Origin: Escherichia coli
Lineage (GTDB): Bacteria > Pseudomonadota > Gammaproteobacteria > Enterobacterales > Enterobacteriaceae
Assembly: GCF_003019035.1 (NCBI RefSeq)
Contig: NZ_CP027447.1
Direction: 5' to 3' (one strand)
DNA length: 64,000 bases
Numbering within the stretch: position 1 is the first letter of the stretch; every line of letters starts with the position of its first letter. Below, piece by piece: positions 19,402-22,348 of this stretch. The notes below the pieces were generated by a model. The model did no database searches and had not been told where the DNA came from. It worked only from the letters and a program-made list of their open reading frames with translations. The translations under genes were made by a program, and so were the position numbers.

Positions 19402-19426
19402 GCGCCATCGTTAGATGGCGCTTTTT
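19402..19426 (+). terminator. Rho-independent terminator after ydcL
   Basis: gcgccatc-gtta-gatggcgc followed by ttttt. Confidence 0.6.
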
Positions 19427-19477
19427 ATCCGGTGCGCCGTAAAACCCCGTCCTTCAGGGCGGGGATATAAGGCGCGG

Positions 19478-19917
19478 TTTTGCACCTGACCAGGTGTTTG
19501 CTGTTGTTCAATGTATTGGCGGATGACGGATATTGGCGCACCTCCGCAGCTACTGGCAAAATAGCCAGGACTCCACAAAACGCCTTTGTAGTAATACCTG
19601 ACTGCAATATCTGGTCGATCTCGTCGCAGTAACCTACCCGATACGCCTTTGAGGCTGTTTACCAGACTGGATATCGCCAGTTTGGGAGGTTAGTTAATTA
19701 ACAAATGGACGTGATCTGGTTCGCCATCCATTTCAACCAGTTCAGCTTCAAAATCAGCACATACATTTGAAAAGTAAGTGCGTAGTTTTTCTGTCGCGTC
19801 ATGGTCAAAAATCTGGCGTCGGTATCTGGTGACAAAGACCAGATGAACATGCATCAGGAAAACACAATGCCTTCCACGCCGGATATCGGTTTCTTTTTTC
19901 ACAGACCAAAGTATCAT
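19478..19917 (-). pseudogene. insP: IS200-type Y1 (HuH) transposase tnpA, disrupted by frameshifts
   Basis: N-terminal 75 codons (19693-19917) carry HVHLVFVTRYRR and the HuH motif DHVHLLI and then stop; downstream minus-strand frames give SLVNSLKGVSGRLLRRD and LWSPGYFASSCGGAPISVIRQYIEQQ in two different frames. Confidence 0.7.
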
Positions 19918-19924
19918 TTGACCT

Positions 19925-21133
19925 GTGAAACGATTACAGGCATTTAAATTCCAGTTAAGACCAGGTGGTCAACAGGAGTGTGAAATGAGGCGCTTCGCAG
20001 GCGCATGTCGTTTCGTTTTCAATCGTGCTCTGGCACGTCAGAATGAGAATCATGAGGCCGGTAATAAATACATCCCTTACGGGAAAATGGCTTCCTGGCT
20101 GGTTGAGTGGAAAAATGCCACTGAAACGCAATGGCTTAAAGATTCTCCCTCACAGCCATTGCAACAGTCACTGAAAGACCTTGAGCGGGCTTACAAAAAC
20201 TTCTTCCGGAAGCGGGCTGCTTTTCCCCGATTCAAAAAGCGGGGACAGAATGATGCATTCCGCTACCCGCAGGGCGTTAAGCTCGATCAGGAAAACAGCC
20301 GTATTTTTCTGCCGAAACTGGGCTGGATGCGCTACCGGAATAGCCGTCAGGTCACGGGTGTTGTGAAAAATGTCACTGTCAGCCAGTCCTGCGGTAAGTG
20401 GTACATCAGTATTCAGACAGAAAGTGAAGTATCCACTCCGGCTCACCCTTCAGCATCAATGGTCGGGCTGGATGCTGGCGTGGCTAAACTCGCCACGCTG
20501 TCAGATGGCACAGTCTTTGAGCCTGTAAACAGTTTTCAGAAAAACCAGAAGACGCTGGCGAGACTTCAGCGACAGTTAAGCCGCAAGGTCAAATTCAGCA
20601 ACAACTGGCAGAAGCAGAAACGCAAAATACAGCGACTGCATTCCTGTATCGCAAATATCCGCAGGGACTACCTTCACAAAGTCACAACGGCCGTCAGCAA
20701 AAACCACGCAATGATAGTCATTGAGGATTTGAAGGTCAGCAACATGTCAAAGTCAGCAGCGGGTACGGTCAGCCAGCCGGGGCGCAATGTCCGGGCAAAA
20801 TCAGGTTTAAACCGTTCGATACTGGATCAGGGCTGGTATGAAATGCGCCGCCAGCTTGAGTACAAGCAGCTCTGGCGTGGCGGTCAGGTGCTTGCTGTTC
20901 CGCCAGCGTATACAAGCCAGCGTTGCGCGTACTGTGGTCATACAGCGAAAGAGAACCGCCTGTCACAAAGTAAATTCAGATGCCAGGTATGTGGATATAC
21001 AGCGAACGCCGATGTAAATGGCGCTCGTAACATTTTAGCGGCGGGGCACGCCGTTCTTGCCTGTGGAGAGATGGTGCAGTCAGGCCGCCCGTTGAAGCAG
21101 GAACCCACCGAAATGATTCAGGCGACAGCCTGA
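19925..21133 (+). CDS. insQ: TnpB-family (OrfB/IS605-type) protein, RuvC-like RNA-guided nuclease family
   Basis: 402-aa intact ORF; N-terminal FKFQLRPGG...RFVFNRAL motif and C-terminal zinc-finger-like CAYCGH/CQVCG cysteine pairs typical of TnpB. Confidence 0.85.
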
Positions 21134-21172
21134 ACGTAGCAGGGATCCACGTCCTTCAGGGCGTGGAGGATG

Positions 21173-22348
21173 TCAATATCGGTTTCTGTCAGCGATTAAA
21201 TTCAACACCACGTAACAAACGCCTCCGGCAATTAATCCCCAAAACGCAGAACCAATCCCGGCCAGCGTCAATCCACTTGCCGTTACCAGAAATGCCACCA
21301 CCGCCGCGTCGCGCTCACGCTCATTATGCAGCGCCTGATACAAACTGCCGCCAATGGTACTCAACAGCGCCAGACCTGCCAGCATCTGGATCCAACTTAC
21401 GGGCAGGGCAGCCATCATCCCGGTAATGGCACTACCAAACAGACCTGCGAGCAAATAGAAAATGCCTGCAACGGCAGCGGCCAGCCAACGTTGATCTTTA
21501 TCCGGATGCGCTTCCGGGCTTTGGCAAATAGCCGCGGTGATTGCCGCAATACCGACGGAATAAACGCCGAAAGGGGAAAAAACCAGTGCCAGCAATCCAG
21601 TAAATACAATTAATGGCGAAACAGGAGCCGAATATCCGGCGGCTTTCATTGCTGCGATACCCGGTGCGTTTTGCGATGCCATCGTCACCAGAAAAAGGGG
21701 GAGTGCAACGCTCAGGCTGTGAGCAAACGAAAAATCAGGGCTAATATAAGTGGGGAGAACGGGTTTAAAGACAACATCAGTTGTGACAACGTCACCTTGC
21801 GCGATAACGATCACGACCCCAATAATCATCGCGGCAATTACCGCATAGCGCGGCGCAACGGCCCTGGTTGCCAGCCATACCAGCAACATACTGCCACACA
21901 ACGTAAATTGACCATCCAGGCTCGCAAACGCCTGTAAACCAAAGCGTAATAAAATCCCGGCAAGCATTGCCGCCGCAAGCGAGTGCGGAATAATGCGCAT
22001 CAGACGAGCAAAGAGTCCCGTTATGCCGCAGAGGACTATTAACGCGTTGGTGACAATAAAAACGCCGATGGTTTCGTTAAGTGTTAGTCCCTGCAATCCG
22101 GTGACCAACAAAGCCGCGCCAGGCGTTGACCATGCGGTGAGAACAGGTACGCGATACCATAATGTCAGAGCCAGCGTACTGACGCCCATTACCAGCCCCA
22201 GCGCCGTCATCCAGCCAGAGATTTGTGCAGTGGTGGCTCCGGCGACAATCGCTGCTTGCCAGATTATTGCCGCTGAACTGGCGTAGCCAATTAATACCGC
22301 CAGAAACCCCGCCAGTAGCGTGGGTGGAGGAATAGAAAACAGACGCAT
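21173..22348 (-). CDS. ydcO: BenE-family (benzoate-type) membrane transporter
   Basis: ORF 21173-22471; start at MRLFSIPPPTLLAGF gives 391 aa; about 12 TM helices. Confidence 0.85.
   Translation of the reverse strand: MRLFSIPPPTLLAGFLAVLIGYASSAAIIWQAAIVAGATTAQISGWMTALGLVMGVSTLALTLWYRVPVLTAWSTPGAALLVTGLQGLTLNETIGVFIVTNALIVLCGITGLFARLMRIIPHSLAAAMLAGILLRFGLQAFASLDGQFTLCGSMLLVWLATRAVAPRYAVIAAMIIGVVIVIAQGDVVTTDVVFKPVLPTYISPDFSFAHSLSVALPLFLVTMASQNAPGIAAMKAAGYSAPVSPLIVFTGLLALVFSPFGVYSVGIAAITAAICQSPEAHPDKDQRWLAAAVAGIFYLLAGLFGSAITGMMAALPVSWIQMLAGLALLSTIGGSLYQALHNERERDAAVVAFLVTASGLTLAGIGSAFWGLIAGGVCYVVLNLIADRNRY

Follow-up and report, generated by a model that had tools for sequence, protein, structure and literature searches.

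An IS609 insertion of Escherichia coli with an uninterrupted tnpB, an inactivated tnpA and a putative ωRNA scaffold

A tnpA gene lies close to only about 25% of tnpB genes, and TnpB has been reported to cut the transposon-free site, which leads to retention or copying of the element (Meers et al., bioRxiv 10.1101/2023.03.14.532601). For ISGst2, the same study proposed cutting of the empty donor joint by TnpB as the means by which the element persists. RNAs located at tnpB 3' ends have been described as sot RNAs (Gomes-Filho et al. 2015, PMC4615843), and TldRs, TnpB homologues of Enterobacteriaceae that are kept without a transposase, have lost the RuvC residues and the transposon ends and target host promoters (Wiegand et al., bioRxiv 10.1101/2023.11.30.569447). 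Here we describe a copy of the insertion sequence (IS) IS609 that lies between ydcL and ydcO in a 64-kb stretch of the Escherichia coli chromosome (the window, to whose first letter all positions refer). This copy combines an inactivated tnpA with an uninterrupted tnpB, and the 3' end of tnpB together with the right end of the element appears to encode the scaffold of a guide RNA (omega RNA, ωRNA).

In this transposon family tnpB is normally found without a functional tnpA. As most tnpB genes have no tnpA nearby and a role of TnpB in element retention has been published, an intact tnpB beside a dead tnpA needs no new host function. We consider it probable that the tnpB open reading frame (ORF) of this non-autonomous IS609 is kept open at the locus by a selfish retention or homing function, and such a function would be the most likely reason why tnpB stayed open while tnpA decayed neutrally and repeatedly.

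IS609 between ydcL and ydcO

The chromosomal order in the window is tehA-tehB-ydcL, the element, and ydcO-sutR-rlhA. The element is IS609 of the IS200/IS605 family, whose genes are called insP and insQ (formerly ydcM) in K-12. This identity was already known, for the Prokaryotic Genome Annotation Pipeline (PGAP) of RefSeq annotates IS609 here as a tnpA pseudogene plus insQ. The 2-kb stretch around the element is 100% identical to many complete genomes, and on the identical stretch PGAP gives a pseudogene with an internal stop, "tnpA: IS200/IS605 family transposase", and "insQ: RNA-guided endonuclease InsQ/TnpB family protein". The same insertion is present in K-12 MG1655, with 99.2% identity. 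An O157:H7 copy whose TnpA is named 'IS609 family transposase' by PGAP served as reference; it aligned to the window copy at about 98% identity with no indels over 1753 bp, i.e. the element plus the 5-nt TTTAT. An earlier note on this DNA, made from the letters alone, had spoken of an IS609-like element, and both the annotation and the O157:H7 alignment agree with it.

To map the boundaries, the window was aligned to an empty ydcL-ydcO site (strain ampC_0069) and to IS609 copies at two other loci, one in O157:H7 within a TetR-family pseudogene beside ytfB, with intact tnpA, and one beside yfeD. With boundaries marked by a slash, the empty site reads ...GGCGCTTTTTAT/TATCGGTTTC... and the occupied site ...TTTAT/CCGGTGCG...GGAGGATGTCAA/TATCGG..., the empty-site junction being TTTAT/TATCGG without target duplication. 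This comparison, together with the ytfB and yfeD copies, delimits an element of 1748 bp without terminal inverted repeats at 19429..21176 (+ strand); limits of 19434-21170 given in the earlier note were 5-6 bp short at each end. At each of the three E. coli insertion sites the left end is directly preceded by TTTAT, and the left-end flanks of relatives in other genera were TTTAT (nine), TTTAC (six) and TTGAT (four).

Subterminal hairpins are present at both ends and, with the lack of terminal inverted repeats and of target duplication and with the fixed target TTTAT, give the end structure of the IS200/IS605 family. The left-end hairpin, CCCCGTCC-TTCA-GGGCGGGG, was read from the sequence at 19445..19464 (+ strand), and the right-end hairpin, CCACGTCC-TTCA-GGGCGTGG, is supported by sequence and covariation at 21147..21166 (+ strand), exactly where the earlier note had placed it. 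The stem of the left-end hairpin is kept intact in the window copy by a G at 19449, which is shared with the O157 ytfB and yfeD copies; the window lineage may have branched early, or the G may have come by gene conversion from another IS609 copy. BLAST matched IS609 at one place only in K-12 and at three places in genomes with the identical allele, the best place per record being listed. The window copy is a chromosomally fixed copy of this 'peel-and-paste' transposon.

The tnpB gene (insQ/ydcM) occupies 19925..21133 on the + strand, starts with GTG and encodes 402 aa, as seen in the ORF list and in NCBIfam, Pfam and PDB matches. The product scored 380.6 bits against the NCBIfam profile guided_TnpB (NF040570; cutoff 100), has the Pfam architecture PF12323 HTH_OrfB_IS605, PF01385 OrfB_IS605 and PF07282 TNB, and aligned end to end with ISDra2 TnpB (PDB 8bf8, E 2.7e-55) with the catalytic residues matched. 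The RuvC triad consists of D183 (20471-20473), E267 (20723-20725) and D363 (21011-21013) and the CxxC...CxxC zinc finger of C334/C337/C353/C356; triad and zinc-finger residues were invariant in all 23 copies examined. The uninterrupted 402-aa TnpB-family ORF of the earlier note is therefore real and has intact catalytic residues, and RuvC-inactivating substitutions, which the note had named as evidence against its reading, occurred in none of these copies.

The tnpA gene, encoding a Y1 HUH transposase, is a pseudogene at 19411..19917 on the - strand. Compared with intact TnpA, the whole gene can be read from the ATG at 19917 without a change of frame and is interrupted only once, by the stop Y76* (TAT to TAA, T at 19690; codon 19690-19692), corresponding to the 'internal stop' of PGAP. 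The HUH codons (H69-V-H71, 19705-19713) and the codon of the catalytic Tyr135 (19513-19515) share this frame, and Y76* falls between them. The intact O157 homologue scored 145.7 bits with NCBIfam transpos_IS200 (cutoff 55), which identifies the interrupted gene as one for a Y1 HUH transposase. The tnpA of the window copy is dead through one nonsense codon, and for this reason the copy is non-autonomous. The inactivating lesion is lineage-specific, being Y76* in the window and L96* in K-12.

Decay of tnpA had thus been recognized correctly in the earlier note, but not its mode, a break into at least three reading frames with the HUH and C-terminal segments apart. A frameshift model was rejected because no indels were found relative to intact IS609 and a single frame translates throughout; the window, O157, yfeD and K-12 copies align without gaps over 1753 bp. 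At the 3' end of the gene, the O157-type stop at codon 144 is lost in the window (19486-19488, G at 19488) and the frame runs on to 19411. TnpA of O157 ends at codon 143 (TAG), whereas the window, K-12 and yfeD copies have CAG and read 25 further codons, through the left-end hairpin. This read-through accounts for the 'missing C-terminus' flag that PGAP sets on otherwise open tnpA genes (L013, L017 and the yfeD copy).

The putative ωRNA scaffold and its predicted guide

The right end was compared with those of relatives from a one-genome-per-species scan, which gave 80 loci with TnpB of 58-94% identity in Enterobacterales, Burkholderiales and others. The 65 distinct right ends stop at an invariant GGAGGA(T/C)GTCAA, and the sequences diverge beyond it. 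When 58 right ends were aligned, conserved single-stranded blocks were found between covarying stems, and a five-helix structure was drawn by hand. In window coordinates (+ strand) the helices are H1 (21038-43/21049-54), H2 (21060-64/21097-101), H3 (21073-76/21086-89), H4 (21117-23/21128-34) and H5 (21147-54/21159-66), and the invariant 3' tail is GGAGGATGTCAA. As a control, the pairing partners were slid by 1-3 columns. Over the 58 sequences 86.7% of cells were paired, compared with 37-47% in the slid control; compensatory changes were present in 23 of the 30 base pairs, and the covariation score was 0.35 as opposed to 0.05-0.11. Frequent G-U pairs assign the structure to the + strand RNA. 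Helices H1-H3 are located inside the tnpB coding sequence, well past the single subterminal hairpin that TnpA needs.

A search of Rfam over 21006-21186 (+ strand) gave no match at the gathering threshold. Below threshold stood HgcC (22.2 bits, threshold 50), sot0042 (17.0, threshold 88) and RAGATH-18 (25.4, threshold 44.9), and all three families sit at tnpB 3' ends. As these curated families matched only below their thresholds, an own covariance model, R1, was built from relatives in other genera, with the window and its two closest relatives excluded. Model R1 found one match only in the 64-kb window, at 21036-21176 (+ strand), with 149.4 bits, an E value of 3e-43 and standard pairs throughout. 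Two other routes were set aside. RNAalifold on the raw MAFFT alignment recovered only 17 pairs, owing to lineage-specific insertions; the minimum free energy fold of the single sequence reproduced H4 and H5 and paired the 5' half differently, and it was not used for the model.

Judged from covariation and from the R1 match, an ωRNA-type scaffold cognate to this TnpB is encoded jointly by the 3' end of tnpB and the right end of the element, at 21036..21176 on the + strand, where it overlaps the last 32 tnpB codons. The earlier note had suggested that the hairpin and about 150 bp upstream form an RNA scaffold and had recommended a covariance-model search; both the place and the extent fit well, and its hairpin corresponds to H5. 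The right-end hairpin is accordingly both the recognition hairpin of TnpA in single-stranded DNA and the 3' stem-loop of the putative ωRNA. The TnpB-ωRNA module of the window is apparently functional.

Members of this family use as guide the DNA that directly follows the right end on its 3' side. From this rule and the right-end boundary, a 16-nt guide, TATCGGTTTCTGTCAG, is predicted at 21177..21192 (+ strand); it equals flank DNA and is antisense to the final ydcO codons. The TTTAT at 19424-19428, which belongs to the flank and lies outside the IS, was the insertion target and is predicted to be the target-adjacent motif (TAM), so TTTAT followed by the guide would specify the empty ydcL-ydcO site. 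This composite target is present in 2048 empty-site genomes. It was absent from the window when up to three mismatches were allowed: the only match to the guide within this limit was the guide itself at the right-end junction, which is preceded by GTCAA and not by the TAM.

Published K-12 data point to RNA from this region. In ribosome profiling ydcM passed the expression thresholds, and 4-8 times more nuclease-protected fragments were present 20-60 nt past its stop codon than over the ORF (PMC5373646, S4 table); the authors labelled this signal a misannotation. The respective interval is 21153-21193 here and comprises the 3' half of H5, the GGAGGATGTCAA tail and the predicted guide. In our own reinterpretation, which is not that of the authors, the footprints are probably the protected 3' end of the ωRNA, which fits them better than an unknown ORF. 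The earlier note had regarded a missing transcript from the right end as evidence against its idea, and the K-12 profiling instead shows strong protected RNA there (PMC5373646).

Maintenance of tnpB at the locus

The junction of the right end with ydcO was found in 3264 of 5426 complete E. coli genomes (60%) and an uninterrupted empty site in the 2048 genomes mentioned above (38%). Twenty-one locus copies were read, namely those of the window and K-12 and 19 others chosen at even intervals along the BLAST ranking. The full 1209-bp tnpB ORF was present in all 21, whereas tnpA was disrupted in 19 by five different lesions, namely L96* (10 copies), a 1-bp deletion at 19876 (five copies), a 5-bp deletion at 19802-19806 (two copies), Y76* of the window (one copy) and E62* (one copy); tnpA was still open in two. 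At an equal rate per bp, the probability that all five lesions fall in the 432-bp tnpA, which is 2.8 times smaller, and none in tnpB is P = 0.0013. The number of variable sites per 100 bp was 5.6 in tnpA, 3.8 in tnpB and 2.8 in the ωRNA region. Synonymous diversity of tnpB (0.023) was close to that of neighbouring ydcO (0.027), which indicates that the insertion is old and that lesions had time to accumulate. A protein-database search for truncated TnpB gave, among the matches listed, almost only full-length proteins, mostly of 402 aa, and public data contain thousands of distinct 402-aa variants.

An intact tnpB in all 21 sampled copies beside five independent tnpA lesions supports selection on tnpB. 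The ORF is preserved beyond chance, but only loosely: the ratio of nonsynonymous to synonymous substitution rates (dN/dS) was about 0.37 for tnpB, whereas tnpA had 0.69 and the ydcO 3' end 0.14; the range for tnpB was 0.37-0.5. The across-strain dN/dS comparison proposed in the earlier note hence agrees with a maintained ORF and with weak constraint on the amino acids. That tnpB is kept by selection, as the note supposed, is borne out; the transposition-independent role deduced from it is not, because a selfish role of TnpB suffices.

Individual strains depart from this pattern. In JX21CE33, IS1A is inserted near tnpB codon 42 (L106:726-2710), and this is the only disrupted tnpB seen at the locus. 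In XH987 the TGA stop has been lost together with the 3' arm of H4 through a 6-bp deletion (window 21129-21134); tnpB is still 402 aa long by virtue of a new TAG, so that the protein is kept and the RNA scaffold damaged. The site of HH45 (NZ_CP116411.1, L100:100-160) consists of TTTAT, 20 G, AGCC and the last 19 nt of the right end, AGGGCGTGGAGGATGTCAA; either nearly all of the IS interior has been deleted there, or the assembly is at fault.

At this locus IS609 has entered the T-tract of the ydcL terminator, immediately after TTTAT, and with it the stop codon of ydcO. For what follows we propose this course of events. By analogy with ISDra2 and Geobacillus TnpB, the tnpB transcript would be processed to an ωRNA consisting of the 21036-21176 scaffold and about 16 nt of flank, TATCGGTTTCTGTCAG, and the TnpB-ωRNA complex would recognise TTTAT plus guide, i.e. 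the unoccupied ydcL/ydcO junction. This junction may be cut whenever it is present, for example after excision by a TnpA acting in trans or on incoming DNA, and homologous repair after the cut would restore or copy IS609. A selfish element that is mostly idle agrees with the loose constraint, the 60% occupancy, the unrelated insertion sites of relatives and the intact nuclease centre alike.

Several observations weigh against selfish retention. The sample comprises 21 genomes of 3264 occupied ones. The dN/dS of tnpB means weak protein constraint, its variable sites are distributed 10/17/19 over codon positions 1/2/3, and 28 codons with amino acid changes as opposed to 16 with synonymous changes only are marginally below the neutral expectation (p = 0.024). 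One scan lists insQ as positively selected (PMC9110714). The remaining 20 copies examined at ydcL-ydcO have A at 19449, giving an A-C mismatch in the left-end hairpin, and one lineage has kept the ORF without the 3' arm of H4. A literature search on the function of IS609 TnpB or E. coli InsQ found no paper. Moreover, as K-12 has IS609 at one place with a dead tnpA, there is no IS609 TnpA to excise the element in that strain, where occasions for the retention function would be rare.

A bolder form of the selfish reading, which we hold to be rather doubtful, is that the immobile TnpB-ωRNA is an active nuclease which selection maintains because its programme is permanently directed against the empty ydcL/ydcO allele, so that it would serve, with no transposase involved, as an allele-level gene drive or a recombination barrier between E. 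coli lineages. If so, incoming DNA with the empty allele would be destroyed, or empty chromosomes would be converted when the element arrives by gene transfer, and the odd post-ydcM signal of K-12 would be the ωRNA of an active nuclease.

Domestication by the host appears unlikely. According to this explanation TnpB-ωRNA at a fixed locus has a transposition-independent cellular function kept by selection at the host level, with RNA-guided regulation of ydcO or sutR, defence against incoming DNA or a recombination barrier as candidate roles. Preservation of tnpB in 21 of 21 copies despite repeated tnpA loss and a degraded left-end hairpin would agree with it, as would the intact gene in K-12, where BLAST shows IS609 at one place and tnpA is dead, and the expression of ydcM in that strain (PMC5373646). 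The guide and any read-out transcription are also antisense to the ydcO 3' end, and the ydcO terminator was lost to the insertion. However, the guide is mere flanking DNA of the kind that every new insertion acquires, the insertion occurs in only 60% of complete genomes and the site is cleanly empty in 38%, the amino acids of TnpB are weakly constrained, relatives in other genera occupy unrelated sites with unrelated guides, and the literature search gave no support for a host function. The RuvC triad is intact, unlike in the domesticated TldR repressors; domestication of the TldR type in particular was rejected, as the triad and both transposon ends are present.

Less probable still is neutral persistence, in which tnpB has no current function, is decaying, and is intact by chance or because too little time has passed. 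It draws on the same dN/dS of 0.37-0.5 with substitutions nearly even over the codon positions, on the thousands of 402-aa variants, and on the existence of eroded copies (the IS1 in tnpB, the 6-bp ωRNA deletion, and the near-total deletion or assembly artefact). Against it speak the five tnpA disruptions in 432 bp and none in the 1209-bp tnpB on the same tree of 21 genomes (p ~0.001), the lower density of variable sites in tnpB (3.8) and the ωRNA (2.8) than in tnpA (5.6), and a synonymous diversity of 0.023 vs 0.027 in ydcO, by which the insertion is old enough for lesions.

That the ORF is open only as a by-product of overlapping signals (ωRNA, tnpA/tnpB promoters, ydcO termination), with the protein irrelevant, is highly improbable: the last 32 tnpB codons do overlap the conserved scaffold and ydcO transcription must run into the right end, but the overlap is below 10% of the ORF, the other ~1100 bp are also without stops or frameshifts, and the catalytic and zinc-finger residues were invariant in 23 of 23 copies.

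Flanking genes and known TnpB systems

IS609 is inserted at the shared terminator of the convergent genes ydcL and ydcO. In a terminator scan, the intrinsic terminator of ydcL, GCGCCATC-GTTA-GATGGCGC followed by TTTTTAT, was located at 19402..19428 (+ strand), and the target TTTAT forms its final five bases. The final T of the target belongs to the stop codon of ydcO in the empty site. After insertion ydcO has lost its own stop codon and terminator and has gained one residue: the C-terminus is ...N-R-TAA in the empty and ...N-R-Y-TGA in the occupied site, and the gene measures 1173 bp and 1176 bp, respectively. According to the ORF list and the comparison of both sites, the new TGA (21173..21175, - strand) is provided by the right end of the IS (...GTCAA). 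The earlier note had the ydcO stop codon abut the right end within a few bases; it is indeed close, but lies inside the element. With its terminator lost to the insertion, ydcO transcription must run antisense into the ωRNA and the tnpB 3' end.

Strain 2015C-3121 has a 6-bp insertion in the 3' coding region of ydcO, after window position 21311, compared with all other sampled strains. An 87-aa ORF (21163-21426, + strand), antisense to ydcO, has its GTG start within the right-end hairpin; although probably spurious, it may be the 'unidentified ORF' invoked for the ribosome-profiling signal after ydcM.

For the most part, these results are housekeeping on an annotated IS609 (insP/insQ) of E. coli. 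Even so, the best-studied bacterium carries an apparently functional, uncharacterised TnpB-ωRNA whose predicted scaffold, TAM and guide coordinates are now stated exactly. The site at which its predicted guide would be aimed is naturally polymorphic, being empty at ydcL/ydcO in 38% of complete genomes, and at least five separate deaths of tnpA at the locus with tnpB left open constitute a natural test of the role of TnpB after transposase loss. The published K-12 profiling "misannotation" after ydcM is probably ωRNA, and users of K-12 as host for TnpB assays should be aware that an endogenous system is present.

Among known systems, IS609 of K-12 and O157:H7 is the same element, in K-12 at the same locus. 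TnpB-ωRNA of ISDra2 from Deinococcus radiodurans (PDB 8bf8, 8exa, 8h1j) aligns with the window TnpB in the RuvC D-E-D residues and the zinc finger. As in ISDra2, the putative ωRNA derives from the 3' end of tnpB plus the right end, the predicted guide corresponds to the 3' flank, and the pentanucleotide targeted by the insertion, 5' of the left end, is the predicted TAM. In contrast to ISDra2, the predicted TAM is TTTAT instead of TTGAT, tnpA and tnpB are divergent, and the ωRNA is unrelated at the nucleotide level. The Rfam families HgcC (RF00062), sot0042 (RF02656) and RAGATH-18 (RF03064) share position, strand and a 3' hairpin followed by the GGAGGA motif with the window RNA, which, scoring 17-25 bits against gathering thresholds of 45-88, is not a member of any of them.

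ISGst2 TnpB2 (bioRxiv 10.1101/2023.03.14.532601) has the same TTTAT TAM and belongs to a non-autonomous, tnpB-only element. ISGst2 is a multicopy element of a thermophile that is mobilised in trans, whereas IS609 here is a single old insertion, polymorphic in the species, and many IS609 hosts such as K-12 are without any cognate TnpA. With the TldRs (Wiegand et al., bioRxiv 10.1101/2023.11.30.569447), the window copy shares retention without a transposase and a guide RNA encoded at the 3' end. Unlike them, IS609 keeps the RuvC triad, both ends and a TAM-flanked insertion, and its predicted guide is the flank of that insertion.

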